Of a stretch of 64,000 nucleotides of DNA, positions 3,359 to 21,644 are shown in pieces. The first letter of the stretch is position 1. Each line of letters starts with the position of its first letter. The position numbers and the translations under genes were made by a program. Source of the DNA: an uncultured Mariniphaga sp. (lineage in GTDB: Bacteria > Bacteroidota > Bacteroidia > Bacteroidales > Prolixibacteraceae). Location: NCBI GenBank assembly GCA_964575025.1, contig CAZNPV010000008.1, forward strand, positions 11,727-75,726. Direction: 5' to 3'. The notes under the pieces were generated by a model, which was given only the letters and a program-made list of their open reading frames with translations, was not told the origin of the DNA and made no database searches.

Positions 3359-6300
3359 TTATTCGTTTTTCAGGGCTGCCACCAATTCTTTTCTTTTAAT
3401 AAAGAACCACGTGAGTATTCCTATCCAGAATACTCCGTTAAGAAGGATGATTCCCACGATCACAACCAGGTTGATCAGAGATACTTCGGTATTATCAGAC
3501 AAAAAGGATGGAAGCGCAGCAATCACAGCGGTAATAAATCCGATGAGAACACCTCCTGCCAGCAATGCTGAATATTCAGAAACCAGCAGGTTGAATATTT
3601 TCATTTTACTGAAGCCTACGGCCCGTAACAGAGCGATTTCCTGTTTTCGCTCCAGGATTGTTCTTGCCAATACAATAGCGAGTCCCAGAGTTCCCAGAAC
3701 CATTCCCAGCGCCCCCAGCGCCAGGAAGATAGCAAGGTATGTGTTGGTAACAGAATAAAATGCGGCAAGGCGTTGTGCTGTTTCAACCTGTTCCCAGCCG
3801 TAATCCCGAAAGGTGAGGGTTAATTCATCAACAACGGTCTGTTTTTGTTCCGGGCTGCTCTCAATAAGGAATAGTTGGGATCCACTGCTTGATGGATAAT
3901 GTTCCAGGAAATGGGTGTTGCTGATAATCACGTTTCCCTGAAAGACAGAAGGTGCCAGCCCTCCAATAAGCTTCAGAGCAAGGGTGTCTCCCGCTTCATT
4001 TCGGTAAAACAGGGTATCTCCCACCTTTTTCCCCAATCCCCACCGGATTACCGTCTGATCGGCTATCGCCGGGATCACTCCTTGTTCCGGTTCTTTGTTG
4101 AGCGATAGCCAGGGGTGTGATTTATCGAGCATTTCATCCGATACAGAAAAAGAAAACCGGCCCTGCAATTCTTCCGGATTCACACCCAGGATGGCCGGTT
4201 GGGAGATCAGGTTCAGGTTCAGGCAACTGGCATCATCGCCTTCCATTCTGCGTAACTGAACAACATCCCAGGTATCTGAAAGCCCCTCCTTAGTGCGATA
4301 CACAGGATCATTTAAATCAGACAAAACAGGCATTGTGGTTTCAGCAAAAAACATAAATCCGCCGGTTCCACTGGTTTTCCTTTCAGCCCCCCGGAACATA
4401 TCTTTCCGGTTGGCACCCGTAGAAATAACAAGAAATGTACCCAACGCCAGCAGTAAGAAAACCGTTAGCGAACGACTGCGGTTTCTGGTAAGATTTCTGG
4501 CACTCAGCCTTCTAAGGCTTAATCTGCTGCCCGGATGTACTCTTTGATAAGTCAACAACCTGTCTGCAAAAAGTATCAGGGAAACAAGCATCAAACTGCC
4601 ACTGATCAAAAACCAGGAAGGATTCTGTGATTCGTCAAGAACGAACTGTTCAATGAGTATAAAAACAGAGATCAAACCAGTCAGTAAAGCAACCATCATT
4701 TTCAGAATGCGTATCCAGGATTTCTCTTTCCCTGCTATTTTTTTCTGAATATCAGCAGCCTGTTGCTTTTGGGTTCTATGCATGGAATAACTGATCACTA
4801 TTACGGAGAGGATTATGCTTGCCAGAAAACCAATTCCCAGGGTTAACGGGACCAACTGTATTTCAAGCATGTTGGTCCTGACAATGTCGTTCCAGAGGCT
4901 GTTGAGTGCATAAAAAACAATATGGGTATATCCGACGCCCAGCACGATTCCTGCCAGAGCTCCTGAAACCGATACGAGAACGCCTTCCGATAAGAACAGA
5001 TTCCTCACCTGTTTGGGCTTAAAACCAAGGACCGTCAATGTCCCCATTTGTCCTTTCCGGTTTTCCAGATTTAACAGGAACAAAAGGGCAGAAAGAAGAG
5101 CAGCAGCTACCAGGAGAAAAAAACTTAACCCGATAAACAGCTGACTGAAACTGACCCCGTTCTGCGCTGCTGCAAGCCCGTTTTCTTTTACGGGGAGGAT
5201 ACTGAATCCCAGGTCTGCAGGATCTGATGCATTATGAAATTTCTCTCTGAGATCTTCTTCACCAAGACGATCCTGTGAAAATCGCACCGATGTATAGTTC
5301 CCAAACCGGTTAGCCCATATTTCCTGAGCTTTCTCAATGGATATAAAGGCTTTGGGCATACCCTGGTATCGATCCCAGTAGGCTTCATCCTTCTCCCTGA
5401 TCTTTTCCAGATCAATAGGGATGCCCGCTTCCCATTCGCTGCAGCTGCCGGCATCATACAAACCCGGTATATACGGCATCAAGGTACTGTCGGTATAGCT
5501 GCTTTTCATGCCAACAACTTTGCTAACAACAAAGGTTGAATACTCCTGCGTCAATTTTCGCAACGGGCCGGCTACATAATAAGCCAGTTCAAGCGAATCT
5601 CCTTCCCCGGCACCCAGGTCGTCAGCCAGCCATTGGTTAATGATGATGTGATGATTTGCCAGTTCACCTGCAGGCCGCGTAGAAACAAAGGAATAAGGAG
5701 TTTCTTTTAGGTGCGTTTGATCCTCTGTTTTTGTGATGCTGTTCACAAAGTAGGTGAAGACACCTGTTGCTCCCGGAAGAGAGCCAAAACAATCATAAAC
5801 AGAAGGATCCATAAAAACACGTTCCGAGAGAATCTCATTCTCTCCGGTTTTTTTGATATTTCTGAAAATGAGGCCTGCATCTTCAGGCTTCCAACGCTCT
5901 TTTAGAATCCGGATTATTTGTTCTGTTTCCAGATCTGAACAGATCAGCAGGGTATTTGCCTTTCCCGAAAAGTCCATCAGTTCATTCAGGCGCTCGATGG
6001 ACATAAAGGCATTAAACGGTGCTGTTTGGGTATTTTGCAATGAAAACCTGCCAAGATCTTCTGCTGATGCGATGTCTTTTATTGAAGCCCGGAAGGAAAC
6101 GCTGGTTTCTTCATCCGACATAAAAGGGGCATTTAAAGGAATCTGGCTCGCCTTTTTGATGCGTAAAACCACTTCATCACCAGGTGTAACAGAAAGCCTG
6201 GCAGCTAAATTTTTGCTTAGTATGATTTCATTCCTTTCCAGGCCGGAAAAAAAACGGGAGCCCGCAATCTGATGAAAAGAACTGTCGACACCTACCACCT

Positions 6301-6619
6301 GAACCCGGTTGGCCCTGTGAGTTCCCCCGTCTGAAATGGCAACTGCTTCACTAAGCAAGGCAGGAGCAACACGCAATGCCCCTTTCACAGCCATATCCTC
6401 CGCCAGATCCTGCCGGAAATAACGATCAACAACCCTAAGGGCATGGGTTGTATTTCCCAATCGTAAGGTCGCAATTTTTGTAAGGCTGTACGATACAGAA
6501 TCGCCTATAATGAGAGCCCCGGTTAATACGGCCGTACTTACAGCAACCCCCAGGGCGATAAGAATATTCCCACGTATATAAAATAAAAAACTCTTTATAA
6601 TGACCTTCAGCCTGTTCAT
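3359..6619 (-). CDS. Fused double FtsX-domain ABC transporter permease (MacB/YbbP-like)
   Basis: 1086 aa. An N-terminal TM helix, a large extracytoplasmic domain and an FtsX-type helix bundle occur twice in the protein. The likely ATPase partner is at 7837-8517. Confidence 0.8.
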   Translation of the reverse strand: MNRLKVIIKSFLFYIRGNILIALGVAVSTAVLTGALIIGDSVSYSLTKIATLRLGNTTHALRVVDRYFRQDLAEDMAVKGALRVAPALLSEAVAISDGGTHRANRVQVVGVDSSFHQIAGSRFFSGLERNEIILSKNLAARLSVTPGDEVVLRIKKASQIPLNAPFMSDEETSVSFRASIKDIASAEDLGRFSLQNTQTAPFNAFMSIERLNELMDFSGKANTLLICSDLETEQIIRILKERWKPEDAGLIFRNIKKTGENEILSERVFMDPSVYDCFGSLPGATGVFTYFVNSITKTEDQTHLKETPYSFVSTRPAGELANHHIIINQWLADDLGAGEGDSLELAYYVAGPLRKLTQEYSTFVVSKVVGMKSSYTDSTLMPYIPGLYDAGSCSEWEAGIPIDLEKIREKDEAYWDRYQGMPKAFISIEKAQEIWANRFGNYTSVRFSQDRLGEEDLREKFHNASDPADLGFSILPVKENGLAAAQNGVSFSQLFIGLSFFLLVAAALLSALLFLLNLENRKGQMGTLTVLGFKPKQVRNLFLSEGVLVSVSGALAGIVLGVGYTHIVFYALNSLWNDIVRTNMLEIQLVPLTLGIGFLASIILSVIVISYSMHRTQKQQAADIQKKIAGKEKSWIRILKMMVALLTGLISVFILIEQFVLDESQNPSWFLISGSLMLVSLILFADRLLTYQRVHPGSRLSLRRLSARNLTRNRSRSLTVFLLLALGTFLVISTGANRKDMFRGAERKTSGTGGFMFFAETTMPVLSDLNDPVYRTKEGLSDTWDVVQLRRMEGDDASCLNLNLISQPAILGVNPEELQGRFSFSVSDEMLDKSHPWLSLNKEPEQGVIPAIADQTVIRWGLGKKVGDTLFYRNEAGDTLALKLIGGLAPSVFQGNVIISNTHFLEHYPSSSGSQLFLIESSPEQKQTVVDELTLTFRDYGWEQVETAQRLAAFYSVTNTYLAIFLALGALGMVLGTLGLAIVLARTILERKQEIALLRAVGFSKMKIFNLLVSEYSALLAGGVLIGFITAVIAALPSFLSDNTEVSLINLVVIVGIILLNGVFWIGILTWFFIKRKELVAALKNE

Positions 6620-6841: not shown

Positions 6842-7780
6842 ATGGAAACAAAAAGAGAATTTCTAAAAAAACTGGGACTCATTACTGTCGGTAGTCTGGT
6901 GGGCGGGACGATGTCTCCTGCATTCGCATCAAAAACAAAAGGAAATTTATTTGCTCCTTCCAAAAAGATTGGTCTTCAGATCTACTCGGTAATGAGGGAA
7001 CTCAACGAGGATGTTCCCAAAGGACTGAAAAGAATTGCGGATATTGGGTACAAAACCATTGAGCTTGCAGGGTACGGGAACAGGAAAATGGGTGAATATG
7101 AAGTTACGGAATACCGCAAACTTGCAGAGGATGCCGGACTGAAGATAACGGGTTCTCATGTGAATCCACCTGTGAGGCAATACTCCAAAGATAACCTGGA
7201 ACAAATCGCAACCTTTTGGAAAGAAACAGTGGAAGACCACGTAAAACTTGGAGTAACTACCCTTGTTCAGCCCTCTATGCCGAATATCCAGACCATTGAC
7301 GATGCCAAATTTGTAGCGGAAGTGTTTAATAAAAACGGTGAGATTACCAAAGAAGCAGGCATTAAATGGGGCTATCACAACCACAACATGGAATTTAACC
7401 GGGTTACGGAAAATGCGGACGAACCGGCACCTTCCAATCCCTGGGTCCGCCAGGGAGAACCTATTTACGACCTGCTGCTGAATCATACCGATCCCAAACT
7501 GGTATTTTTTGAAATGGATGTTTACTGGGCTGTTATGGGACAAGCCGACCCGGTTGAATATTTTCACAACCATGCCGGCAGATTCCCTGTTCTGCACATT
7601 AAAGACCGTGCTGTCCTCGGAGAATCCGGAATGATGAATTTCAAAAAAATATTTGAAGTGGCCTACGAAAACGGCCTTGACGAGTATTATGTGGAACTGG
7701 AAGGCATTCGGGGAATGACTCAGTTTGAAGGAGTTAAACGCTGTTTCGATTATCTTGCAAATGCTCCTTTTGTAAAATAA
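6842..7780 (+). CDS. Exported sugar phosphate isomerase/epimerase (xylose-isomerase-like TIM barrel)
   Basis: 312 aa. Tat-like signal (KREFLKKLGLITVGSLVGG...AFA) followed by a pattern typical of the AP-endonuclease-2/xylose-isomerase-like TIM barrel family. Confidence 0.7.
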   Translation: METKREFLKKLGLITVGSLVGGTMSPAFASKTKGNLFAPSKKIGLQIYSVMRELNEDVPKGLKRIADIGYKTIELAGYGNRKMGEYEVTEYRKLAEDAGLKITGSHVNPPVRQYSKDNLEQIATFWKETVEDHVKLGVTTLVQPSMPNIQTIDDAKFVAEVFNKNGEITKEAGIKWGYHNHNMEFNRVTENADEPAPSNPWVRQGEPIYDLLLNHTDPKLVFFEMDVYWAVMGQADPVEYFHNHAGRFPVLHIKDRAVLGESGMMNFKKIFEVAYENGLDEYYVELEGIRGMTQFEGVKRCFDYLANAPFVK

Positions 7781-7803
7781 CAACAACCAGATGCCATAAA
7801 CAG

Positions 7804-7836
7804 ACAGGTGTTATTCCAATAGCACCTGTTTTTTTA
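7804..7836. terminator. Bidirectional intrinsic terminator between convergent genes
   Basis: ACAGGTG (7804-7810) and CACCTGT (7823-7829) form the stem, followed by a T7 run. The element lies between the stop at 7780 (+) and the stop at 7837 (-). Confidence 0.6.
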
Positions 7837-8517
7837 TTAATTCAACACTCCGTCATGCAGATAACAGGTTTCATCCATACGGTCTGCCAGATCCTGTGAA
7901 TGAGTTACTACCACCATAGCCACTTTTTCTTCTTCGCTTAATGAAACCAACAGATCGCCAAGATTCTTCGCGTTTTTTTCATCCAGGGCACCTGTTGGTT
8001 CGTCGGCAAGCAACAGTTGGGGTTTATTAATCAGCGCTCTGACCACTGCTGTACGCTGGCATTCCCCTCCGGATAATTCTGCCGGGCGTTGATACCGTTG
8101 ATCCCAGATACCCACCCTCTTAAGCAGGTACTCAGCCCACGATTCATCCATAACCTGTACTTTCTTTTTAAAAGGAAGTACAGGCAACAACACATTTTCC
8201 CAGAGCGTAAGCTGTGGCAGAAGATAATGCATCTGAAAAATAAATCCCAGTTCCCTATTTCTGAATTCTGCCATTTCAACCTGTGACAACCGGGAGAGGT
8301 CTTTTTCCTTAAAGATGATTCTTCCCGAATCTGCACGGTCGAGGGCTCCTGCAACATTAAGCAGGGTTGTTTTTCCGGACCCGCTGGGCCCCAGAACCGC
8401 CATTTTTTTCCCCTCCTTCACTTCCAGCGACAGTTCTTTTAGTACAGGCCGGAAACCGGGGCTGTTGGGATCTCCATATCCCTTTGATACATTGTCCAGC
8501 AATAATAAACTAGCCAT
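7837..8517 (-). CDS. ABC transporter ATP-binding protein (MacB/LolD type)
   Basis: Walker A GPSGSGKTT, signature LSGGECQR and Walker B LLLADEPTGALD are all present. Confidence 0.9.
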   Translation of the reverse strand: MASLLLLDNVSKGYGDPNSPGFRPVLKELSLEVKEGKKMAVLGPSGSGKTTLLNVAGALDRADSGRIIFKEKDLSRLSQVEMAEFRNRELGFIFQMHYLLPQLTLWENVLLPVLPFKKKVQVMDESWAEYLLKRVGIWDQRYQRPAELSGGECQRTAVVRALINKPQLLLADEPTGALDEKNAKNLGDLLVSLSEEEKVAMVVVTHSQDLADRMDETCYLHDGVLN

Positions 8518-8531
8518 CTATGATTTATATA

Positions 8532-9830
8532 TTATTGTTTTTCGCTTCCATGCAGTGATTCGTACAGCTCAATCATTTTCAGGGTTTGTATGTGGATATC
8601 AAAATGTTTTCTGACCCCACTGACCGCCTTCTCACTGAGCGATTGAATTCTTTCCGGTTTGGTAAACAAATCCTCCAGGGTCTCTGCAAGTGCTTTGGGG
8701 GTATTCTCTTCATAAATCACTCCGCCTTCCGAAGTTTCCACAATTTCCGGGAAAGCCCCCAATGCAGGCTGTACTACAGGCACCCCTGAAGCCATAGCTT
8801 CCAGAAGGTACATTCCGAAAGCTTCTCCATTCCGTACCGGTACTGAGAGCAAAGAGACCTTTTTAAAAAATTCGTCTCGTCCCTGATCTTCAAACTTCTT
8901 ATGAAAGTCAACCTGACTATCCAGATTGTTCTTTTTTAAACGCTTTTTTATTTCTTTGATATAGCGGGTATCATCCCCTGTAGAACCACCGGTAACCACC
9001 AGTTTTACATCCCCGAACCCGGGTTTCTTTTTTAACTCAATAAATGCATCGGTAAGAATATCCAACCCGTTTTCATGGTTCATTCGTGAGAGATATCCAA
9101 TATTACGTGGCTTTTCTGAAGAATTAATGCAGGTATAATCTGTATGGCTGATGCCAAGGTGTATGATATGCACTTTTTCTGGGGGTAAGTTCATCTTTTT
9201 CTTCATCACATCCGCAAAATAGGTACTGACCGATATAAAGGCATCCACATTTTCAGCTTTTTGGTGCATCAGTTTCCAGATATGTTTTCTGAAACCCGGT
9301 TCCATGGCGTCAACCCATACATCTTCATCCTGGAGCGAACATACCACCGGGACGTTAAGCTTTTTTTTAATCTGACGGGCCAGACCCAGCAACAAAGCAT
9401 TGGATATATGGATGATATCCGGCTGAAAGTGGTCGGCTATCCAGTGAACCATTTCGTCCAGTTCTTCCCGTTGCTTTCCTTCTTCTCCCATCAGCATGGA
9501 TTCAGTCATATCTTCCAGTCCCCTGGCGTTGGTTGATCCAGCCATCGATGAAGCAAACTTCAGAAGAGGCTTTGAATTTAAAACACGCTCCACCCATCTC
9601 GGTGCTTTTCTCAATACAGGAAAACGTTGTTTCAGGTACAGACTCACAGCACCATAAAATACCGGAATGTCGGTAAGGTCATGTTCATCCGCAAAAAGGG
9701 GCAGATACATGGGTATCTTAATTACCTGGTGTCCTTCCTTTCTGAAAGCTTCGAAATATTTGCTGTCACGAAGACAATTCCCGCAATAAAAGGAACCACC
9801 TGATCCGGGTATTATCTGAATGATATTCAT
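8532..9830 (-). CDS. Glycosyltransferase, family 4 (GT-B fold)
   Basis: 432 aa. The C-terminal half carries the GT4-type EAFGMYLLEAMASGVPVV motif. The N-terminus has an unusual GSFYCGNC motif. Confidence 0.75.
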   Translation of the reverse strand: MNIIQIIPGSGGSFYCGNCLRDSKYFEAFRKEGHQVIKIPMYLPLFADEHDLTDIPVFYGAVSLYLKQRFPVLRKAPRWVERVLNSKPLLKFASSMAGSTNARGLEDMTESMLMGEEGKQREELDEMVHWIADHFQPDIIHISNALLLGLARQIKKKLNVPVVCSLQDEDVWVDAMEPGFRKHIWKLMHQKAENVDAFISVSTYFADVMKKKMNLPPEKVHIIHLGISHTDYTCINSSEKPRNIGYLSRMNHENGLDILTDAFIELKKKPGFGDVKLVVTGGSTGDDTRYIKEIKKRLKKNNLDSQVDFHKKFEDQGRDEFFKKVSLLSVPVRNGEAFGMYLLEAMASGVPVVQPALGAFPEIVETSEGGVIYEENTPKALAETLEDLFTKPERIQSLSEKAVSGVRKHFDIHIQTLKMIELYESLHGSEKQ

Positions 9831-9856
9831 GATTTGCTTTCTTTCCCTGTTCGTTC

Positions 9857-10963
9857 TTATTCACCAAAACAGTACACAAAACCATCGAAAGCACCGGTCA
9901 CAATTTTTCCGGAAAATACGGCCGGATTACTCAATACGGAACTTCCCAGTTCATAGGTCCAGACAACTTCCCCGTTTTCCAGGTTTGAAATAATCAGGTC
10001 ACCGCGGGTATTTGCCGTAAGCACTTTATCTCCTGAAATTACTGAGGATGCATCTATTTTTCTTCCGGTATTGTGCTTCCAGCGCAATTCTCCGGAATCC
10101 TTGTCAAAACAGTAAATGTATTTATCGTTGTTGCCGATCACAACCTTATCATCTTTTAATGCCGGCGACGCAATAAACGGAAGAAGCGTTTCTTCATCCA
10201 GCCATGTCCATAACACCTTTTTTGTTTGCAGATCAACTTTTGAAAATTTACCATCGTAATCGCCCAGGTAAACATGATTCCCATCTACGGCCACCGAACT
10301 GGCCACATACGTAGCCACATCAATTTTTGAAATCAGTCTGCCGTCAGAAATATTCACGATATGGAGAAAACCGTCACAGCCACCAAATATTGCTTTGCCA
10401 TCAAAACAGGCTGCGGCACCGTTCACAAAATTATCGGTTTCATATTTCCAGCGGACCTCGCCGGTTTCTGCATCCACACAATGAAGGTAAAAATCGTAGC
10501 TCCCCACCACAATGCTTGTTTGTCCGTCACTGGTCCAATAATTGGGAGAACCACTGATCTGATTTTCACACCTATACTCCCATTTCACCTTTCCCGAATG
10601 AAGATCGATAGCCAGGAGCTGACCATCCAGGTTCCCTATATACACGGTACTCTCCAGGATTAAAGCAGGAGCTTCAATGGAATTTTCGGTTTCATGCTCC
10701 CATATTTTTTTACCCGATGTATCCAGACAGTAAACCATTCCGTTTGTTGATCCAATCACTATTTTCCCGTTTGCGGCAACCGGAGCTGATTTAATCATAT
10801 CTCCGGTATCAAATGTCCAGAGCAGCTTTGGGTCCCGGGGTAATTCAGAGGCTGCCACGCCTGTGAGTTGCTTATTCCCCCGGAATAGTGGCCAGGCGGT
10901 CTGTTCCTGGGGATAAACCATATACCCAAAGAAAATCAATACAATAAGTGTTAAATACTTCAC
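9857..10963 (-). CDS. Secreted PQQ-like/BamB-like beta-propeller repeat protein (paralog 1)
   Basis: 368 aa. Signal peptide, then WPLFRG, then repeated ...G.l.a.D..tGk..W... blades. Confidence 0.8.
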   Translation of the reverse strand: MKYLTLIVLIFFGYMVYPQEQTAWPLFRGNKQLTGVAASELPRDPKLLWTFDTGDMIKSAPVAANGKIVIGSTNGMVYCLDTSGKKIWEHETENSIEAPALILESTVYIGNLDGQLLAIDLHSGKVKWEYRCENQISGSPNYWTSDGQTSIVVGSYDFYLHCVDAETGEVRWKYETDNFVNGAAACFDGKAIFGGCDGFLHIVNISDGRLISKIDVATYVASSVAVDGNHVYLGDYDGKFSKVDLQTKKVLWTWLDEETLLPFIASPALKDDKVVIGNNDKYIYCFDKDSGELRWKHNTGRKIDASSVISGDKVLTANTRGDLIISNLENGEVVWTYELGSSVLSNPAVFSGKIVTGAFDGFVYCFGE

Positions 10964-11005
10964 GATAATTCGTAATTATAGGTTAATCTTTGTATCCAGG
11001 CCTCT

Positions 11006-12568
11006 TCAGCTTGTTTTTTTCATTGACAGAGCTCCCGTCGGACAGCTTTCCGCCACCTTCCTGGCAGTAACCACCAGGCTGTCTCTCAATTCCTCATTAA
11101 AAGGTGTACCTATCTCCACATCAAATCCCCTGCCAATGAAAGTAAATCCGAATTTCTCCCTGTATTTGGCCGTCAGCCGCACACAGATTCCGCATTTAAT
11201 GCATTTCCCCGGTTCATACACAACAAGGTCGTGGTTGAAAAGTTTAGAGATTTTTCGTCTTTCTCCGGTTGAAAATCTGCGCTGGCTGGCTTTGTATTCT
11301 TCAGCAAGGTTCCGAAGTTTACACGAATGTATCTCCCGGCAATCACAATGAAGGCATCGTTTGGCTTCTTTCCGGGATATTTCCGGTTCAAATCCCCGGT
11401 TTTCTGTTTCCGGAGGGGTCCATCGTTTACCGGGAATTGATTCTTTCAGGTATTCAGAAAATTCTTCCGGGGTCAGCTTTCCGAACCTGGAATTAAACAG
11501 ACGGGGCTCTCCTTTCACTTCTTCCCTGTTTATATACTGATCCACTGAAAAAGCCACCTCTTTGCCCTGTCCTGCCGAGCGCACTGCCAAACGCGACGGG
11601 CGCAGTACATTGCCAATTGCAAACACTCCTTCTTCGGAAGTCTCATAGGTGTTTTTATCTGCTTCAATTCCTTTGGCTGTTAACCGGAAGCCCCATTTTT
11701 TCTGGGAATCGGAAATATTTCCGGAGGCTATAATTACCGCATGGTTTTCTTTTCTCAGTTCCCGGAACATTTCTGCATCCACCTCTTTGCCAGTTTCCAA
11801 TGCAACCCCGGTGTCCGCGATCTGTTGTATTTCCCTGTCGAGGATTTCTTTCGGAAGTTTTTCATTATCGATTTTGTACCGCAGCATTCCTCCCGCCTGT
11901 TCTTCTTTTTCATAAACGGTACATGCATACCCCCTCAAGCGGAGATAGAAGGAAGCTGCCAGACCTGCCGGTCCTGAGCCTATAATGGCCACTTTTTTCG
12001 TATTGGAAGGGGGAACTTCAAGCGATTGAAAAACCTTTTCCGCGGCTATATCACCAACAAATCTTTTCAGGAGACATATTGATACCGCTTCATCCACCGA
12101 TTTCCGATGGCAGGCTCCTTCACAGGGTGCCGGACATATACGTCCCAAAACGGAGGGAAGGGCAATGTCCCGGAGAACCACCCGCAGGGATTCTTCAAAT
12201 TTACCTTCCAGAATCAGGCGGTTCATTTCCGGAATATTCATGTGTGCCGGGCAGGCAATCTGACAGGGTGCTTCGCAATCGCCGACATGCTCACTGAGCA
12301 GCAATTCCAGAGCTATTCTCCTCCCTTCCAGGACCTCTTCATCTTCGGTAACAATCTCCATGCCCTCCTGTACCATTCTCGAACAGGAAGGAATAAGCTT
12401 TCCGGTAGCAACATTTTTCACCAGGCAAACCATACAGGACGTAAAATGTTCCAGTTCTTCATGCCAGCACAACGAAGGAATCCGTTCTCCTGCCAGTTCA
12501 GCTGCTTTCATTACAGAAGTTCCCTCCGGAACCTGTATTTCTCTGTTGTTTATTTTAATGTTGATCAT
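11006..12568 (-). CDS. FeS/FAD oxidoreductase: N-terminal 2Fe-2S ferredoxin domain, GltD-like FAD domain lacking the NADPH-binding Rossmann domain, C-terminal 4Fe-4S region
   Basis: 520 aa. NuoG/HydA-like N-terminus, GltD-type Cys pattern (CPAPCEGAC), GXGXXG (IIGSGPAG), and C-terminal CIKCGICV...CPTGA. The start abuts the stop of the upstream gene (TAA-ATG at 12568/12569). Confidence 0.7.
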   Translation of the reverse strand: MINIKINNREIQVPEGTSVMKAAELAGERIPSLCWHEELEHFTSCMVCLVKNVATGKLIPSCSRMVQEGMEIVTEDEEVLEGRRIALELLLSEHVGDCEAPCQIACPAHMNIPEMNRLILEGKFEESLRVVLRDIALPSVLGRICPAPCEGACHRKSVDEAVSICLLKRFVGDIAAEKVFQSLEVPPSNTKKVAIIGSGPAGLAASFYLRLRGYACTVYEKEEQAGGMLRYKIDNEKLPKEILDREIQQIADTGVALETGKEVDAEMFRELRKENHAVIIASGNISDSQKKWGFRLTAKGIEADKNTYETSEEGVFAIGNVLRPSRLAVRSAGQGKEVAFSVDQYINREEVKGEPRLFNSRFGKLTPEEFSEYLKESIPGKRWTPPETENRGFEPEISRKEAKRCLHCDCREIHSCKLRNLAEEYKASQRRFSTGERRKISKLFNHDLVVYEPGKCIKCGICVRLTAKYREKFGFTFIGRGFDVEIGTPFNEELRDSLVVTARKVAESCPTGALSMKKTS

Positions 12569-14911
12569 TTATTTTACATCAATTGCATCTTCCGGGCAAA
12601 CCTGCCGGCATGCATCACATTTGATACACAATTCGGTATCGATCTCATGTTTTTCATGGGGCTTGAAAGCAATGGCATCGGTTGGGCATTTCTGAGCACA
12701 CAAGGTACATCCGATGCAGTTATCATTTACTGAATAGGTAATTAATCCGGTGCATTTTCCGGTTGGGCACACGCCATTGATATGGGCTTCATACTCCTCC
12801 CTGAAATACGTTAAGGTTGTTAACACCGGATTGGGAGCAGATCCTCCCAGGGCACACAGACTTCCCTTTTTTGTCCACCGGGCCAGTTCCTCCAATTTTT
12901 CCAGGTCACCTTCCTTCGCTTTCCCGGTACACAGATTATCCATAATATCCAGCATTTTTCTGGTTCCCACCCTGCAGAAGGTACATTTTCCACAGGATTC
13001 ATTTTGTGTAAATGAAAGAAAAAACCGGGCTATATCGACCATACAATCGGTATCATCCATCACGACCAATCCTCCGGAGCCCATCATGGCTCCAAGCCGG
13101 GTTAGTGATTCATAATCGATGGGTGTATCTCCCAACGATGCCGGAATACATCCTCCGGAGGGTCCGCCAATCTGGACCGCTTTGAACTTTCTGCCATTGG
13201 CTATTCCTCCTCCGATCTCTTCGACTACCTGATTAATCGTGGTGCCCATAGGTACTTCAATGAGGCCTCCCCGGGCCACTTTCCCTGCGAGGGCAAAAAC
13301 CTTGGTCCCCTTGCTTCGCTCTGTACCTATACAGTTAAACCGTTCCGGTCCGTTACGAATTATATAGGAAATCTGTGCCAGCGTTTCGGTATTGTTAACC
13401 AGTGTGGAATGCCCCCACAAGCCTTTATCAGACGGATACGGAGGCCGGATATGCGGAAAACCGCGGTTTCCCTGGATCGATTCAATCAGGGCTGATTCCT
13501 CGCCACAAACGAAAGCCCCGGCTCCCTCATAAATGGAAATATCAAAATCAAAACCCGACCCCATAATATCTTTCCCCAGGTATCCATGTTCACGGCACAT
13601 TCTCAGGGCTTCACGGATACGATGAACGGCCAGGGGATATTCTGCCCTGATATAAAAATATCCATCTCCGGCTCCTGTAGCATATGCAGCGATAATAGCT
13701 CCTTCAATAACCCGGTAAGGATAAGACTCCAGAAGCATCCTGTCCATAAATGCGCCGGGATCCCCCTCATCCCCGTTACAAATCAGGTACTTTTGATCAT
13801 CCTTCTTTTGGGCTACAAGCTCCCATTTCATTCCCGTAGGAAAACCGGCTCCACCCCGTCCCCGGATACCACTTTCCTTAACAATCCTGATAATTTCCTC
13901 CGATCCCATCTTAATGGCCATTTCCAGGCCTCTGAAACCAGCTTTCGATATGTATTCTTCGATATCCAGGGGATTTATCACTCCCCTGAACTCTGTGGCT
14001 ATAGAGATCTGTTTCCCTAAAAATGAGGCAACCTGTTTTTCCCGTATATTCAGTTCGTATCGTTTAATTCCATCCCATTTGCTGTCGGATTGAATGTTTT
14101 CTATGGAGCTTAAAAACCGGTTCTTAATTCGCGTCAGAAAACCAGAAGCTTTAAAGTGGTTCGTTATAATTTCGCCGACATCCTTTGGGTTAACCCTGGA
14201 ATACAGAATTGTTTCCTTGCTATCATAAGGGACTATTTCCACCAGGGGCACCTGGTGGCACATCCCCACACATCCTACGTGTTTGAGTTTTACGTTCAGT
14301 TTGTTTCTGTTCACTGCCTCTTCCACAGCCTCACGAATCTCTCCGCTTCCGCTGGCTACACAACAGGATCCCAACCCGATGCGTATTTCTCCCTCTATCA
14401 CTGTTCCATCAGCACGACGGGCTTTCTGATCCTCTTTTTTATCTTTCCGGGACTCAAAATCCCGTATGACCTGAACCACCTGTCCGGACTCTACATGTCC
14501 ATAAGTTATCCTGTCAACCTGTACTACAGGAGCCAGCGTACAACACCCCAGGCAACTTACTTTTTCCAGGGTATACTCCCTTTTTTCGTCTGTATCCTCT
14601 CCTTCTTTCAACTTCAGCTCCCTGTGAAAAGCATCATACACCTGCTCTGCTCCTTTCACATGGCAAGCGGTTCCTACACATACCTTTATCCGGTGATGCC
14701 CGGTTGGAGATATCCGGAATTGAGAATAAAAACTGGCCACTCCGATAATATCGGCAGCAGTAATCCTGGTCGTCTCACTAACCCTTCTTAAGGCTTCCTG
14801 AGGAAGGTAGTTATATTCCGCCTGAATTGCCTGCAATATAGGAATCAGGTTCTTCTTTTCAGAACCCGTTTTTTGAATGATTGTATCTACAACAGTAAAA
14901 TCCTTCTCCAT
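12569..14911 (-). CDS. NuoE-NuoF fusion flavoprotein (HydB/HndC-like NADH-binding FMN/FeS diaphorase subunit)
   Basis: 780 aa. NuoE-like 2Fe-2S Cys pattern, a second 2Fe-2S-like domain, NuoF motifs GRGGAGFPTG and CNGDEGDPGAFMDR, ESCGKCTFCR, and a C-terminal 2x[4Fe-4S] CxxCxxCxxxCP. Confidence 0.85.
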   Translation of the reverse strand: MEKDFTVVDTIIQKTGSEKKNLIPILQAIQAEYNYLPQEALRRVSETTRITAADIIGVASFYSQFRISPTGHHRIKVCVGTACHVKGAEQVYDAFHRELKLKEGEDTDEKREYTLEKVSCLGCCTLAPVVQVDRITYGHVESGQVVQVIRDFESRKDKKEDQKARRADGTVIEGEIRIGLGSCCVASGSGEIREAVEEAVNRNKLNVKLKHVGCVGMCHQVPLVEIVPYDSKETILYSRVNPKDVGEIITNHFKASGFLTRIKNRFLSSIENIQSDSKWDGIKRYELNIREKQVASFLGKQISIATEFRGVINPLDIEEYISKAGFRGLEMAIKMGSEEIIRIVKESGIRGRGGAGFPTGMKWELVAQKKDDQKYLICNGDEGDPGAFMDRMLLESYPYRVIEGAIIAAYATGAGDGYFYIRAEYPLAVHRIREALRMCREHGYLGKDIMGSGFDFDISIYEGAGAFVCGEESALIESIQGNRGFPHIRPPYPSDKGLWGHSTLVNNTETLAQISYIIRNGPERFNCIGTERSKGTKVFALAGKVARGGLIEVPMGTTINQVVEEIGGGIANGRKFKAVQIGGPSGGCIPASLGDTPIDYESLTRLGAMMGSGGLVVMDDTDCMVDIARFFLSFTQNESCGKCTFCRVGTRKMLDIMDNLCTGKAKEGDLEKLEELARWTKKGSLCALGGSAPNPVLTTLTYFREEYEAHINGVCPTGKCTGLITYSVNDNCIGCTLCAQKCPTDAIAFKPHEKHEIDTELCIKCDACRQVCPEDAIDVK

Positions 14912-14956
14912 ATCTTTCCCAACAAAAATCCCTGATTGGTCTTTACTCCTTATCTC

Positions 14957-16858
14957 TTATTTCCCAAAACAATACAGATTCCCGATGCCCCGGATAAAAA
15001 TTCTGCCATCCGAAAATGCAGGGGATGCATACCCTTCTTCCCCCAGTTCCGGTTGACCCAATACCTTTGCTTCCCTGCTTACTTCAAGAATATGCATCAC
15101 TCCCTGGGTATCGAGGGCATAGATCTTATTATCTGCTACCACCGGGGAAGCGTAAAATACTTTTCCGAAGTCTTCCTCCCAAAGCAATTCTCCTGTTTTT
15201 GCATCATAACACACCAACATCCCATAGGTTGTGGCCACTATCAGCAGCCCGTTTGCACATACCGGGCTGGCCACTTCGGGAAGGTAAAAATCATCTTCCC
15301 AGACAATGGCTGCGTTCACCGGATCAATCGCTGCAAGGCGGGCATATTCATTGGCAGCAAAAACCAACCCTTCACACACGGTTACTGAAGGGCCAACCTC
15401 GCCCATCAGGCACTCCACAGCCCATTGTTCTTCACCTGTTTCAGTATCATAACCTGCCACAATCGGAGCGCCGGTAAGTATCACCTGTTTTTTCCCGTTG
15501 ATATCAGCCAGTACGGGGCTTGCCCAGGAGATACCGGCATCCCGGGGGGTTTCCCAAACCGTTTCGCCGTTTGCTGTATTCAGGGCCATCACTTTTGCCC
15601 CGCTGTTGGTGTCGAACTGAACAAACACTTTCCCGTTCCAGGTAACCAGGGATGAGGAGTGTCCATAATGGTTGTCAGGCATTCCAAGGTTCCTCGCCCA
15701 GATCCGGTTTCCGTTCACATCAAAACAGATGATATCACCGGTCGCGAAAATAGCAAAAACGTATTTCCCGTCTGTTGTAACGGTCGGAGCAGCCAACCCT
15801 GTATCATCCGATACCTTTGGTATTTGGGCTGGTGATCCGGGAATATTATCTGCCACTCCGGACCATAAAAACTCCCCGGTATTCTTATCCAAACAGTATA
15901 CTACCCGGGCCTCCTCATCACCCCCTGAAAGGAAAACTTTATCTTCCCAGACAACGGGCGAATTGAATCCTGGTTTCGGTATCGCGGTCTTCCAGATAAG
16001 ATTTGTTCCGTCAGCCCCGTTCCATTCTACAGGTACGTCAGAAAGGGTACTGACTCCATTGCTCCAGGGACCCCGGAAACTGTTGTAATTACCATTCACC
16101 TTTGCAGGAGTTAAGATGCCTGCTACACCCTCTGAATCAGCTTGTTCGGATTCATCCAGCCCTTCATCCGTTCCTTCCTGCAGAGCTTCTTCCTGGCTGG
16201 AACCTGGGTCCGGCGTACTAACTGTTTCTTCTCCGGTTACCCTTTCCGGTTCTGTTTCCCCGGTATCCGGACCGGAAACCTCTTCTGCCACCTCTCGTGA
16301 GGCACTTATATCCACGACTTCAATCCCTTCCTCAGCAGGTTGTTCATCCGGTGGTATGTTCGTCTCACCTATGGAATATTTATCCAGTTGGTTTACCGTA
16401 GCCAAGGAAACAAACAATGCTGAAACCAACACGGCAACCCCGGTAAAAAGAATCCATTTCCGGGAAAGAATCCGGCTCGCTATTTCATTTTCCTGTGCCG
16501 TATCCGGTTCCTCAATTTTTGCTTTCAGAGAATAATAATACCGTAAAGCAACCGCACAAACAACTGCACCGAAAAGCAAAAGGTATGCTCCGGTTTTAAC
16601 CTGCCACCTGCTGTTGAAGTAGGCTTTTCGCGCAAGAAGATCAAAACTCCGTATTTCCTCCTTTAATTCTTCGTTATTGGGTTCATCCTGCAGCCTTTCC
16701 ACCAATGCTTCAATGGTTTTGCTCTCCAACGTTTCATTCTGTGCAAACTGATAATAGTTCAGCAGAAGAAGCAACGCCACCAATGCACAAAAGATTCCGG
16801 AGATGAGAATCACCTTTTTTGAAAGCTGAAGTTTATCGTTCATTGATATTTCTTTCAC
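14957..16858 (-). CDS. Membrane-anchored PQQ-like beta-propeller protein with acidic linker (paralog 2)
   Basis: 633 aa. Three N-terminal hydrophobic helices, then a roughly 90-aa Glu/Asp/Thr/Pro-rich linker, then SFRGPW and PQQ-like blades. Confidence 0.75.
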   Translation of the reverse strand: MKEISMNDKLQLSKKVILISGIFCALVALLLLLNYYQFAQNETLESKTIEALVERLQDEPNNEELKEEIRSFDLLARKAYFNSRWQVKTGAYLLLFGAVVCAVALRYYYSLKAKIEEPDTAQENEIASRILSRKWILFTGVAVLVSALFVSLATVNQLDKYSIGETNIPPDEQPAEEGIEVVDISASREVAEEVSGPDTGETEPERVTGEETVSTPDPGSSQEEALQEGTDEGLDESEQADSEGVAGILTPAKVNGNYNSFRGPWSNGVSTLSDVPVEWNGADGTNLIWKTAIPKPGFNSPVVWEDKVFLSGGDEEARVVYCLDKNTGEFLWSGVADNIPGSPAQIPKVSDDTGLAAPTVTTDGKYVFAIFATGDIICFDVNGNRIWARNLGMPDNHYGHSSSLVTWNGKVFVQFDTNSGAKVMALNTANGETVWETPRDAGISWASPVLADINGKKQVILTGAPIVAGYDTETGEEQWAVECLMGEVGPSVTVCEGLVFAANEYARLAAIDPVNAAIVWEDDFYLPEVASPVCANGLLIVATTYGMLVCYDAKTGELLWEEDFGKVFYASPVVADNKIYALDTQGVMHILEVSREAKVLGQPELGEEGYASPAFSDGRIFIRGIGNLYCFGK

Positions 16859-16975
16859 TTGTATAGAACTAATTTAAAACATTATGCAATTAAAAATAAG
16901 TAGCAGTGTCTTAACAGACTTCATCGGGCCCGTGGTACCTCGTTTCATCCATAGATTGTTATGATCTTTCATCCT

Positions 16976-18241
16976 TTACTTTTTATCGACAGGGCAATAA
17001 TCCATACAGCGCCCGCAACTGAAGCATTCACCCCGGTTAGGGGTATAATCTTCCTTGCGACGATAAACCACCTGGTTCAACAGGGTTAATCCAATCACCA
17101 GACCGATAAATCCTCCCAGAATCCAGCTTCCCACATAAAATTCCTCTCTCTTTAATCTGGCTTCTTCCACCAGGGTATCCATTGTTTTTCCGGATTCCAG
17201 AAAGGTCTGAATATCTATATTTTCAGGATCATCTTTTAACTCAGGATGTTCAATCAGCAATTCAGCCAGGTATACATCGGGATGAGCCCTTGACAGCCAT
17301 ACATGGGCTTCCGAACCGATAAATCCACCGGCAGCTATCCATAACGGGAGCAAAGCAGCATACAGCATAAAATTTCTGACTCCCGCACGGGATGAGGTTG
17401 TTGCTTTTTCATCGGTAGGAACATCAATCGCATCAAAAGGACACGAGGTAGTACATAACTTGCAACGGATGCATCGGGAGGGAGTTATGGATAAATGCCA
17501 TTTAGAAAATCTTGAGAACAAGTTTAACAGTACGGCATAAGGACAGATAAACCGGCAATAGGGACGTGCAACAAACATTCCCATCAATAAGAAACTTACT
17601 CCCAGGACAATCATATGAAACGGGGCATCCATTCTGAAGATACCGATAAACGGATCATAACGGCAAATAATAAATTCGGTTCCGGTAGCTGCATAAAGAA
17701 CAGCAAGCCCCAGATAGATAGCAGGAAAGATCCCCAGGATCTTCCGCAGCCAGCGTGGCAGCGAAATGGGTTTAAGGATAACGAGGTCCTGAATGGCCCC
17801 CAACGGACAGGCACCTGCACAAAATGTTCTTCCAAAGAATAAAGTGAAAATCAGAGGCATCAGGAAAAACAACAAAGCAGTGACGGAAACAGCATAGGTT
17901 GAATCAAAAAATGAAAGGGTGACATTCTGCACCGCCCCTACCGAACAGATACAGCCGTTACGGTAAAAACCAAAATAGAGCATGGTAAAAACCGACAACC
18001 ATAAAATTCCCTGCCGGGAACGTTTCTTCAGGGCCATATAAGAAACCATGGAAAGAACGACCAGCAAGACAAGTACATCTAAATACTCCATCGCCTGAGC
18101 GCGTGGCTCCGGTGTTACCGGATCGGGTTGGACATAGCCGCTTTCGAATTCCGGTTTGGGGAATCGTTGCTGCTGCCCCGACACAGATACACAAAACAGC
18201 AACAGGATAAAAGCCACGAACAGGTGTATTTTTGGTATCAA
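16976..18241 (-). CDS. NapH/NosR/MauN-like integral-membrane polyferredoxin
   Basis: 421 aa. Two CX3CP motifs at helix ends (CAGACPLG, CRFICPYA), 4Fe-4S motifs CIRCKLCTTSCP and CFSCGRCMDYCP, and multiple TM helices. Confidence 0.75.
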   Translation of the reverse strand: MIPKIHLFVAFILLLFCVSVSGQQQRFPKPEFESGYVQPDPVTPEPRAQAMEYLDVLVLLVVLSMVSYMALKKRSRQGILWLSVFTMLYFGFYRNGCICSVGAVQNVTLSFFDSTYAVSVTALLFFLMPLIFTLFFGRTFCAGACPLGAIQDLVILKPISLPRWLRKILGIFPAIYLGLAVLYAATGTEFIICRYDPFIGIFRMDAPFHMIVLGVSFLLMGMFVARPYCRFICPYAVLLNLFSRFSKWHLSITPSRCIRCKLCTTSCPFDAIDVPTDEKATTSSRAGVRNFMLYAALLPLWIAAGGFIGSEAHVWLSRAHPDVYLAELLIEHPELKDDPENIDIQTFLESGKTMDTLVEEARLKREEFYVGSWILGGFIGLVIGLTLLNQVVYRRKEDYTPNRGECFSCGRCMDYCPVDKK

Positions 18242-18274
18242 AGTTTTAAGTTTTATGCTTGTTTCATTAAATGT

Positions 18275-18841
18275 CTATGCTATATTGGTCCAGCTTCCCT
18301 TCACCTTATAAGCATTCTCAGCTTTGACGCGTTTAATCGCATCAGAAGGACAAACCCGTGCAATGGAACACTCATTGCAATTGAGGCATATATGGTGCAT
18401 GATCTGCAGGTGGAGAGATCCGTTTCCGAAAGCCGTACATCCTTCCACACATTTGCCGCATCCGATACATAAATCTTCGTGAATAATATACTCAAAATAG
18501 GGTTCCTCAATAAACTTTCGTTCGATCGCAGCAGCCGGGCAAAGCTGATTTTCGGCTGCTGTTGAAAGTTCATTGGCATCGGGCTTAAAGTATCCTCCGC
18601 ACAGATCACAATACCCGCATAAATCAAAAGCATGAATGCATTTCACTGCCGAAGGATTCAGCATACACTCGGTGGCACAACGCCCGCACTGTGTACACTC
18701 AAAAGGATCGATCTGCCATACCCATTCGTCGGTTGTTGAGCGACCAAGGGCCAACCCTGCCAGTCCACCGACAGCCATTCCCATGACCATGCGCGTCCCG
18801 CTCTGAATAAATTCTCTCCTTGTTTTAGCTTTTTCTTCCAT
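18275..18841 (-). CDS. Tat-exported 4Fe-4S polyferredoxin (NapG/MauM-like)
   Basis: Start placed at MEEKAKTRREFIQSG... (twin-arginine signal). There are several CxxCxxC...CP clusters. The longer ORF running to 18919 is probably an N-terminal over-extension. Confidence 0.75.
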   Translation of the reverse strand: MEEKAKTRREFIQSGTRMVMGMAVGGLAGLALGRSTTDEWVWQIDPFECTQCGRCATECMLNPSAVKCIHAFDLCGYCDLCGGYFKPDANELSTAAENQLCPAAAIERKFIEEPYFEYIIHEDLCIGCGKCVEGCTAFGNGSLHLQIMHHICLNCNECSIARVCPSDAIKRVKAENAYKVKGSWTNIA

Positions 18842-19031
18842 CTTCTCTCGCTCTTTTTGCCTTTTGAAGGGTACACGTTGAAAAGCGCTCACATCCGGAG
18901 CAGAGTGAATCCCCTTCACATTCTGAAACCCCGGTAATGCGCCTGTTTAGGGTTAAGTAACCGGTAAAAACACCAATACTGCATAGTATTAGCCACCTTC
19001 CACTGTTTCTTATAAATTCCTTTCGTTTCAT
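18825..19031 (-). CDS. Small (68 aa) anchored protein with a CX5CX2CX5C motif
   Basis: N-terminus MKRKEFIRNSGRW plus a hydrophobic helix resembles a degenerate Tat signal or anchor. Tail reads CEGDSLCSGCERFSTC. The start shares an ATGA overlap with the upstream gene's stop, and 17 nt overlap the downstream start. Coding status is unproven. Confidence 0.45.
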   Translation of the reverse strand: MKRKEFIRNSGRWLILCSIGVFTGYLTLNRRITGVSECEGDSLCSGCERFSTCTLQKAKRAREDGRKS

Positions 19032-20017
19032 TCTATGGGTTTAAACAAACGGATCATCTTTCGGTCAAAATCCAGGGCATAAATATTTCCTTTCTCATCA
19101 GCCGTTACCTCAGGAGCCTGCCCGTCTTCCTTAAACTTATCAGGAGGAGCCACAACACATTTAAATTCTCCGGATGGTTTATATATTTTTATACGTACCA
19201 GTCCTTTTTCGCTGGTAACAAAGGAACCATCGGGAAGGAAGGTAAAATGCGCGGGATTACAGCATCCACCGAAAGCTTCAATACCCACAATTTTTTTTTG
19301 CTGCCAGTACTCCCGTAATTTACCCTCAGGGGTATAATGCTCAAGGGCATGCAAACCGGTATTCGCCACCCATAAATCCCCGTATTTATTAAAGGCCAGA
19401 TCAAAATACCTGCTCGGAATGATAAATCCGTACAGGGCTTCATCTTCATGTTTTCCGTCAAACTCGCTGATCTTTTTTCCATCCAATGTAAACCGGCATA
19501 TTCTTCTTCTTCCGGCATCTGCAACAAAAAGTTCATCCTCCCATATTCCCAGCGATGTGATTACCGATTTCTCACCCAGCGTATCCCATTTGCTGATCCG
19601 TTCTCCGTTTTTGTTGTAGGAAGCAATATAATTTATAAATGCGATAAATATCCGGGTTGAATCCAGGGTTATGCATGTGGGGGTATCACCCAAGGATTGT
19701 TCAAAAACTAAAGAACCATTCTCTGTGATTACCTGTAAATACTGGTCTCCCAACACATACAAATTCCCTTTTTCATAGGCGATTCCATAGGGTTCAGAAA
19801 AGTTCAGCCGGATGTTTTTGGTTTCTTTGTATTGAATCAGTGAAGGATCCACCTGTTTATACTCATCGATATTGTAGTCAAAGGGATTTACAGGCAGCTT
19901 TTCCGGTCGGATTGAGATAAAATCAACCACCACCACAACCACTATGATTACAGCCAGGGTTATTAGAAAAAGTATGATTCCTTTATTCTTCATAATTATA
20001 ACCGCATATCGATACAA
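19028..20017 (-). CDS. N-terminally anchored NHL-repeat-like six-bladed beta-propeller protein
   Basis: 329 aa. TM helix (ILFLITLAVIIVVVVVV), then NHL-like repeats (YGIAYEKGNLYVLGD, LFVADAGRRRICRF, GDLWVANTG, GNIYALD). Contains a vicinal Cys motif GGCCNP. Alternative start at 19993. Confidence 0.65.
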   Translation of the reverse strand: MYRYAVIIMKNKGIILFLITLAVIIVVVVVVDFISIRPEKLPVNPFDYNIDEYKQVDPSLIQYKETKNIRLNFSEPYGIAYEKGNLYVLGDQYLQVITENGSLVFEQSLGDTPTCITLDSTRIFIAFINYIASYNKNGERISKWDTLGEKSVITSLGIWEDELFVADAGRRRICRFTLDGKKISEFDGKHEDEALYGFIIPSRYFDLAFNKYGDLWVANTGLHALEHYTPEGKLREYWQQKKIVGIEAFGGCCNPAHFTFLPDGSFVTSEKGLVRIKIYKPSGEFKCVVAPPDKFKEDGQAPEVTADEKGNIYALDFDRKMIRLFKPIE

Positions 20018-21423: not shown

Positions 21424-21644
21424 GAATCCTCCTTATCCTTAAAACCACCCCTGAGATCGGGGACCAAAGTCCTCTTCAGTATTTACCGGGTACAATATAC
21501 TTTTTTAAATTAAAACTCCGGACCTTCTATGCCTGACAGAAATGAACCCGGCTTTTTTACAGGATATCGTATTCCTTTACAATTCAGATGATAAAAATAA
21601 GGATTTTTATCTTTGCTTTGTTAACACGATCTGAACGGTTCAAT

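Follow-up and report, generated by a model that had tools for sequence, protein, structure and literature searches.

A bifurcating-type flavoprotein pair without an NADPH domain in Mariniphaga and its candidate electron partners

Electron-bifurcating flavoenzymes of the Bfu (BfuABC) family combine a constant NAD(H)/ferredoxin core with a variable third reaction. In a 64,000-nucleotide stretch from an uncultured Mariniphaga sp. (contig CAZNPV010000008.1, positions 11,727 to 75,726; hereafter the window), two genes encode the proteins P0002 and P0001, in which this core is intact and the pocket for the third substrate has been cut out. The pair lies within a conserved cluster of membrane and periplasmic genes, which is found in several phyla of anoxic-sediment bacteria. 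With what does such an enzyme exchange its electrons? An initial annotation, made from the sequence alone, had described two abutting open reading frames (ORFs), and these are present as claimed:

12569..14911, minus strand: P0002, 780 amino acids, a BfuC-BfuB (NuoE-NuoF/HydB-type) fusion flavoprotein (Pfam, NCBIfam, PDB alignment, AlphaFold2 (AF2) model)
11006..12568, minus strand: P0001, 520 amino acids, an NfnA/StnC-type BfuA subunit lacking both the NADPH domain and the formate dehydrogenase (FDH)-like tail (PDB phmmer, AF2 model, Foldseek)

The TAA stop codon of P0002 is followed immediately by the ATG of P0001, with zero spacer at the junction. Since the alignments of orthologs begin at residue 1 of P0001, the long start of this protein is correct. 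On balance, we lean towards the view that P0002/P0001 is a Bfu module of Nfn ancestry, in which a protein wire has taken the place of NADPH as the third substrate.

Domain architecture of P0002 and P0001

P0002 matches the Pfam families 2Fe-2S_thioredx in two stretches (the best at residues 9-152), Complex1_51K (344-515), SLBB and NADH_4Fe-4S (626-710), followed by a C-terminal 2x4Fe-4S domain (729-778, Fer4_21/Fer4). Residues 176-779 align end to end with residues 7-594 of T. sibiricus (Tsi) NfnB (E 2.7e-206), which is followed in the PDB ranking by C. saccharolyticus (Csac) NfnB, S. ovata StnB and then the HydB and NiFe-BfuB chains. The NuoE domain and the full-length NfnB alignment together identify P0002 as BfuC fused to a full BfuB, in agreement with the annotated NuoE-NuoF fusion carrying the extra iron-sulfur (Fe-S) domains of the HydB/Stn type. 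The AF2 model (predicted local distance difference test score (pLDDT) 80.7, predicted template modelling score (pTM) 0.82) is confident apart from residues 159-170, in the linker, and 274-292. The following parts are distinguished, where FMN is flavin mononucleotide:

14432..14911, minus strand: BfuC/NuoE-like module, residues 1-160, with the C1 [2Fe-2S] cluster (PF01257 9-152, E 3e-50)
14387..14437, minus strand: Lys/Asp/Glu-rich fusion linker, about residues 159-175 (AF2 pLDDT <50 at 159-170; sequence)
14126..14386, minus strand: B5 thioredoxin-like [2Fe-2S] domain, residues 176-262 (NCBIfam 2Fe-2S ferredoxin models at 182-262; aligns to the NfnB N-terminus)
12746..14014, minus strand: NuoF-type FMN/NAD(H) core, residues 300-722, with the B1 and B2 sites (TIGR01959 314-711, E 1e-138)
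12572..12745, minus strand: C-terminal 2x[4Fe-4S] ferredoxin domain, B3/B4 (Fer4_21/Fer4 729-778)

Conservation was assessed in 69 orthologs from related loci for P0002, and in 66 proteins of the same shortened form for P0001. The ligands of C1 (C78, C83, C120 and C124), B5 (C183, C184, C214 and C218) and the B2 site (C588, C623, H710, C715 and C720) are invariant in all 69 orthologs, as are the eight Cys residues of B3/B4 (732-772), the domain that forms the ferredoxin-facing end in Bfu enzymes. At B1, C640, C643 and C686 are found in 69/69 orthologs, and the fourth ligand, C646, is Cys in 67/69. The GDPGAFMDR loop of P0002 is identical in 7t2r_B, and its Ala and Met residues align to A202 and M204 of A. 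mobile BfuB, while the third cited residue, F182, has no certain mapping. Schut et al. linked this Ala/Met signature to bifurcating BfuB, and found B2-B5 to be absent from the non-bifurcating homologs (PMC9304861). The family features found in P0002 are therefore the NuoF core with B1, the B2 site, B3/B4 with B5, the C1 cluster of BfuC and the Ala/Met loop. A mobile BfuC C-domain has been described previously (PMC12018979), and the low pLDDT of the linker would fit this.

P0001 matches Fer2_4 (residues 1-75), Fer4_20 (98-178) and Fer4_Nqo3 (448-514), and its Pyr_redox_2 match is limited to residues 191-283, corresponding to profile positions 1-108 of 291. The closest solved chains are 9bov_A (Csac NfnA), 9n5u_A (Tsi NfnA) and 8oh5_C (StnC), with E values from 6e-93 to 4e-82. 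In the alignment with 9bov_A, residues 2-284 of P0001 correspond to chain residues 4-287 and residues 277-515 to chain residues 428-672, so that about 140 chain residues are unmatched. Between positions 283 and 301 of P0001, the long relatives have 146-167 residues, as compared to 17-19 in the short forms. The GxGxx[GA] motif occurs once in P0001, at 197. Eight of the nine long forms have at least one further match, which is GGGNTA at 330-334 in three of them and a different match at 321-329 in three others. The AF2 model of P0001 (pLDDT 95.2, pTM 0.92) superposes on all three chains with Foldseek query template modelling scores of 0.85-0.89 over 682-710 alignment columns, the columns beyond 520 being due to the absence of the NADPH domain. 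The parts of P0001 are as follows, where FAD is flavin adenine dinucleotide:

12329..12568, minus strand: A1 [2Fe-2S] domain, residues 1-80, with C34, C45, C48 and C62 (PF13510 1-75)
12014..12328, minus strand: GltD-type 2x[4Fe-4S] domain, A6/A7, residues 81-185 (PF14691 98-178)
11720..12013, minus strand: N-terminal half of the FAD domain, residues 186-283, with GSGPAG at 197-202, E220 and GG at 226-227 (conservation)
11669..11719, minus strand: stump loop, residues 284-300, replacing the NADPH Rossmann domain (17-19 residues, as compared to 146-167 in the long forms)
11519..11668, minus strand: C-terminal half of the FAD domain, residues 301-350, with GVFAIGN and the canonical GD Asp replaced (F316 and G319 near-invariant)
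11009..11374, minus strand: A2 (C405, C408, C410 and C416) and A3 (C456, C459, C462 and C509) [4Fe-4S] domains (Fer4_Nqo3 448-514; aligns to 9bov_A 528-672)

The A6/A7 residues are H94, C98, C102, C106, C145, C149, E150, C153 and K168. All 66 short forms keep H94, E150 and the Cys residues of A1, A2 and A3, and the Cys residues of A6/A7 show little or no variation. P0001 terminates 11 residues past the last A3 Cys, while the NfnA chains are 953-1178 amino acids long, and the FDH-like tail of NfnA/StnC has thus been lost as well. The alignment, the short insert, the single GxGxx[GA] motif and the model agree with the earlier proposal that the second (NADPH) Rossmann domain of the GltD-like partner is missing, although the deletion amounts to about 130-165 residues instead of the roughly 170 given there. 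The 2Fe-2S N-terminus, the GltD Fe-S pattern and the FAD motif of the partner were also recognized correctly, but P0001 is not a bare GltD; it is a GltD module between NuoG/HydA-type Fe-S domains. The C-terminal 4Fe-4S region, which had been regarded as new, corresponds to the ordinary A2/A3 sites of NfnA/StnC.

Distribution of the short form and conservation of its flavin site

A full HMMER scan over 1.84 billion representatives recovered the short form in more than 100 clusters at 50% identity. These proteins are 505-550 amino acids long and align with P0001 over the full length in one stretch, with 36-52% identity, and the closest 120 clusters at 90% identity all measure 501-541 amino acids. 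The short form is a large conserved family, not a peculiarity of this genome. A one-off deletion or an assembly artefact is ruled out by the more than 100 diverse clusters that share it. Such proteins are currently annotated as glutamate synthase small chain, FAD-dependent oxidoreductase or ferredoxin. No description of the cluster or of an NADPH-less GltD was found in the literature searched.

Carriers of the short form belong to Bacteroidota and at least four other phyla. In Bacteroidota, the main carriers are Prolixibacteraceae, Draconibacterium, Mariniphaga, Maribellus, Lentimicrobiaceae and Marinifilaceae, and further carriers are metagenome-assembled genomes (MAGs) labelled Aminicenantes, KSB1, Victivallales and Armatimonadota. 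The presence is patchy: 6/8 genomes of the same genus, 13/24 in the family, 2/16 in the other families of the order, and 0/400 genomes of an even phylum sample at E <= 1e-120. In a FastTree phylogeny, midpoint-rooted with no outgroup, the ten true long forms (659-709 amino acids) constitute one clade. GltD relatives generally possess the NADPH domain, and its absence from the short forms is for this reason considered to be a loss.

Several family members differ in length or fusion. Still shorter members of 486-492 amino acids have an insert of 1-5 residues, and P0234, P0237, P0248, P0263 and P0265 (473-492 amino acids) have a stump of only 1-5 residues between the two halves of the FAD domain. 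In P0144 (951 amino acids, five members), the short form is combined with a URO-D-like domain, and in P0140 (1133 amino acids, a single member) with a complete GltD-like module and Fer4.

In the FAD Rossmann motif of the 66 short forms, G197 and G202 are invariant, G199 is present in 65/66, the acidic residue at 220 (D/E) in 64/66 and the GG pair in 64-65/66. A dinucleotide cofactor, presumably FAD, thus seems to be still bound by P0001. On the other hand, the canonical GD Asp at position 320 is degenerate (N16, S16, A11, G10 and D7). The flavin N5 is hydrogen-bonded by an Arg residue in StnC (R239) and NfnB (R201) (PMC10482914), which we assigned to the YRLP motif by the numbering offset in the 9bov_A alignment. 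P0001 has Lys237 at this position, which in the family (n=66) is occupied by R15, K13, V7, E6, I5 and others. The [YF]RL sequence is kept in the seven long forms shown. The GIP motif has been lost, too. The mean top-residue frequency is 0.48-0.52 in the FAD domain and 0.50-0.61 in the Fe-S domains, as compared to 0.29 in the stump loop, the most variable part. In our reading, selection in the short forms would no longer maintain a chemistry adjusted to exchanging hydride with NADPH.

Gene neighbourhood and the proposed electron route

The genes on both sides of the pair, all on the minus strand, are those of membrane and periplasmic proteins:

18275..18919, minus strand: P0008, NapG-like polyferredoxin (TatFd), its N-terminal RR motif being read as a twin-arginine translocation (Tat) signal (Cys motifs, Pfam Fer4)
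16976..18241, minus strand: P0007, NapH/NosR-type (Fer4_5) membrane Fe-S protein, candidate electron partner (Pfam, NCBIfam, synteny)
14957..16858, minus strand: P0003, PQQ_2-type propeller anchored by three transmembrane helices (PropTM), always adjoining the pair on its upstream side (Pfam, synteny)
9857..10963, minus strand: P0004, propeller with a hydrophobic N-terminus (PropD), directly downstream (Pfam, synteny)

We compared 160 related loci, 80 from genomes and 80 from metagenomes, the seeds of the latter set being taken from clade B, the deeper one in the tree. Where the contig is long enough, the recurring order is Prop475 - g329 - TatFd - NapH-like - PropTM - NuoEF - BfuA', in which NuoEF and BfuA' stand for the P0002 and P0001 orthologs, and in clade A loci BfuA' is followed by PropD - GT4 - ABC ATPase. 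In loci of sufficient length, the core TatFd-NapH-PropTM-NuoEF-BfuA' recurs in two deep clades of short forms and in several phyla. PropTM-NuoEF-BfuA' is the most tightly linked unit and can occur by itself. Five genomes with BfuA' but no upstream NuoEF were searched whole: an ortholog of the fusion lies on another contig in 3/5, one has NuoEF fragments at contig edges, and one has no full match.

No hydrogenase or FDH catalytic subunit had been seen next to the pair, and this is borne out here and in the related loci. With the HydA and molybdopterin proteins of this genome as tblastn queries, no match to a hydrogenase H-cluster or molybdopterin catalytic domain was found within 10 kb across the 160 loci; the only matches were to the shared N-terminal Fe-S region inside BfuA' itself. 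The genome-wide search for hydA that the initial annotation had proposed revealed two FeFe hydrogenases on other contigs (C17:34725-38837 and C1:67973-71235). One locus encodes a full HydB-type partner, matching residues 171-778 of P0002 with 49% identity, and the other a short NuoF-type partner, matching residues 331-720 only, which may be non-bifurcating. As both hydrogenases are flanked by their own NuoE/NuoF genes, P0002/P0001 is ruled out as their diaphorase.

A gene for a Rex-type redox-sensing repressor (Put_DNA-bind_N and CoA_binding; 23182-23847, plus strand) is divergent to the cluster, which suggests NADH/NAD+-dependent control. A scan for promoters and terminators in window positions 7000-23500 gave counts equal to the shuffle expectation. 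The stretch is present in DNA sequencing runs of salt-marsh and salt-lake metagenomes, and no RNA run was among those listed.

Other observations concern the surroundings of the cluster. A divergent protein of the thymidylate synthase fold is encoded at 23945-24835 on the minus strand (PF00303, E 1.5e-11, partial match). The ABC ATPase (7837-8517, minus strand) is the last conserved gene of the clade A cluster, after GT4, and a double FtsX/MacB-type permease of 1086 amino acids (3359-6619, minus strand) lies apart from it. A MAG labelled Syntrophothermus encodes P0195, in which a short BfuA' is followed by a hydrophobic helix and then by a propeller with 43% identity to P0004. If this fusion is real, P0004 would be anchored in the membrane by its hydrophobic N-terminus, which would connect a cytoplasmic Fe-S protein with a periplasmic propeller; P0195 and P0140 are both single sequences and may be gene-calling read-throughs. 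Among the related loci, BfuA' matches in two pieces about 175 nt apart, by insertion or frameshift, at L110:7607-9421. A second partial GltD-like match lies 5 kb downstream of BfuA' at L131:16277-16846. In L103, the BfuA' gene adjoins alaS, with NuoEF not nearby, and is directly followed by an ORF of 1360 amino acids with a methyltransferase domain and a PQQ_2 propeller (10897-14979).

Taken together, P0002/P0001 appears to be a two-subunit Fe-S flavoprotein whose origin lies in the Nfn-type branch of the Bfu family. P0002 would handle NAD(H) at the FMN and ferredoxin at B3/B4, around a B1-FMN-C1 flavobicluster core, and P0001 would provide a mid-potential wire, A1-A2-A3-A6-A7, ending in the FAD domain. 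The covalent BfuC-BfuB link may compensate for the loss of the FDH-like domain, which in NfnABC contributes to clamping the BfuC N-domain. In NfnA/StnC, the NADPH pocket is built by the second Rossmann domain; with this domain excised, NADPH is ruled out as the third substrate. All of the electron path and the bifurcating-type core persist, and the NADPH half of the pocket alone has gone. The simplest reading is that the third partner is no pyridine nucleotide. Electrons would be exchanged with a protein partner at the open flavin/A7 end, or at the A3 end, which the loss of the FDH-like tail is predicted to expose. In view of the constant neighbours, the most likely partner would be the cytoplasmic Fe-S face of the NapH-like protein, as the initial annotation had suggested; this candidate partnership is proposed from conserved synteny. 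Encoded together with membrane and periplasmic Fe-S and propeller proteins, the pair probably feeds an undescribed transmembrane electron route. The NapH-like protein would hand the electrons on to the polyferredoxin exported by Tat and to the propellers in the periplasm. Confurcation would be the likely direction, with NADH and reduced ferredoxin together supplying low-potential electrons that flow outward. As a complete scheme, in which the third substrate is a transmembrane Fe-S wire and electrons of about -400 mV are exported via the NapH/NapG-like pair to the propellers, this is put forward only tentatively.

If true, electron bifurcation/confurcation would extend to transmembrane electron delivery, a flavin-based confurcating enzyme would drive periplasmic reduction, and the NapH/NosR-type conduit, whose cytoplasmic clusters had no assigned partner, would gain a cytoplasmic donor.

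Several observations weigh against this overall reading of the pair. The variable N5 Arg and the degenerate GD Asp imply that the flavin may be a passive relay, or absent. K168 of P0001 aligns to the Lys ligand of A7, K170 in Csac (PMC11829005), and is Lys in 45/66 short forms. The vacated site is occupied by the stump loop, which varies more than any other segment of P0001, while a specific docking surface would predict otherwise. In some loci, the trio PropTM-NuoEF-BfuA' occurs without NapH/TatFd nearby, and the link of P0001 to the NapH-like protein comes from synteny. Co-prediction of P0001 with FAD and P0007 (residues 40-421) gave a score of 0.00, which speaks neither for nor against binding. 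Moreover, bifurcating activity is not readable from sequence.

The relaxed residues around the flavin would also suit a plain, non-bifurcating NADH dehydrogenase, in which NADH reduces the FMN and the Fe-S wire of P0001 delivers the electrons to the NapH-like protein, much as the NuoEFG module does for complex I, with the ferredoxin and FAD domains being evolutionary leftovers. The membrane-linked context is in line with this, and in NfnA itself the A4/A5 branch is a dead end and has been considered a remnant (PMC11829005). Nevertheless, we regard this alternative as rather unlikely, as the ligands of B2, B3, B4, B5 and C1 are all invariant, P0002 bears the Ala/Met bifurcating signature while non-bifurcating homologs lack B2-B5 (PMC9304861), and the GxGxxG motif, the acidic residue and the GG pair of P0001 are invariant or nearly so over 36-83% identity, where leftovers would drift. 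Selection on the FAD domain combined with a variable vacated surface would instead fit a soluble reductase, whose exposed flavin reduces a small molecule (quinone, polysulfide, oxygen or xenobiotic) and for which the membrane genes are not partners, as the loci without NapH/TatFd near the pair might indicate. The relaxed contacts to flavin N5 and ribityl are unexpected for a catalytic flavin, and the trio, usually with the full core, is syntenic across phyla down to about 37-45% identity, which makes this explanation improbable.

Electron flow in the opposite direction, with the propellers oxidizing a low-potential donor and the core bifurcating to NAD+ and ferredoxin via the NapG/NapH-like pair, has a similarly small chance. 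Bifurcation to NAD+ and ferredoxin requires a donor near -400 mV; no H2- or formate-oxidizing catalytic subunit is encoded in the 160 loci, and to our knowledge PQQ_2/BamB-like propellers have no low-potential chemistry. Reversal as such would be no obstacle, since Bfu enzymes are reversible (PMC9304861) and the cofactor set is the same either way. Finally, the pair might be an Nfn-type transhydrogenase whose NADPH site is supplied in trans by a separate GltD-like protein. Two full-length GltD-like paralogs exist elsewhere in the genome, and P0140 has the short form fused to a complete GltD-like module (Pyr_redox_2 over residues 677-968). However, the P0140 cluster has no second member and comes from one contig of 7.8 kb, no GltD-like gene is present in this cluster or in nearly all of the related loci, and the NADPH pocket of StnC is carved by two Rossmann folds of one chain (PMC10482914), and we thus consider supply in trans very improbable.

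Comparison with known systems

P0001 and P0002 find their best PDB matches in the same three complexes, NfnABC of Csac (9bov) and of Tsi (9n5u) and StnABC of S. ovata (8oh5). As in these complexes, P0001 has the order A1, GltD module (A6, A7 and FAD), A2, A3, and P0002 has the same BfuB domains and ligands. The mid-potential path of NfnABC, FAD-A7-A6-A3-A2-A1-B1-FMN, is kept whole in P0002/P0001. In contrast to NfnABC/StnABC, P0001 lacks the NADPH Rossmann domain and the FDH/NuoG-like C-terminal domain that carries A4/A5, BfuC is fused to BfuB, and neither the Arg at flavin N5 nor the GD Asp is conserved in the short forms. Whereas NfnABC/StnABC are encoded by stand-alone three-gene operons, the pair occurs in a context of membrane and periplasmic genes. 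The earlier judgement that this is not a standard Hnd, Nfn or Stn set is supported.

The best NCBIfam match of P0001 is PRK12814 (NF009454, about 660 amino acids), named "putative NADPH-dependent glutamate synthase small subunit", with 384 bits against a cut-off of 916 and two matching stretches, the better covering residues 2-286. P0001 resembles this family in its 2Fe-2S N-terminus, GltD Fe-S and FAD domains, C-terminal Nqo3-like ferredoxin domain and lack of an FDH-like tail, whereas the long forms of 659-709 amino acids retain the NADPH domain. Unlike the NuoEFG module of complex I, P0002 contains B2-B5, and there were no nuo membrane genes in the window stretch examined.

P0007 and P0008 share the layout of the NapG/NapH, NosR and RdhC-type conduits, a Fer4_5 membrane protein with a Tat-polyferredoxin. 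We know of no cytoplasmic NADH-linked flavoprotein donor for these conduits. Their acceptors are known reductases, while propellers are found here. In their survey, Schut et al. left 17-18 BfuB clades unassigned, and no Prolixibacteraceae-type entries were found in its supplement (PMC9304861). In the type 2/3 Bfu enzymes (NiFe-HydABCSL and WorABCSL), BfuA is fed by extra subunits and serves only as a wire that links distinct redox partners to the BfuBC core (PMC9304861, PMC12018979), an idea shared with the present reading of P0001. Their BfuA subunits lack the GltD/FAD module of P0001, and their partners are soluble catalytic subunits, whereas the candidate partner of P0002/P0001 is a NapH-like membrane protein.

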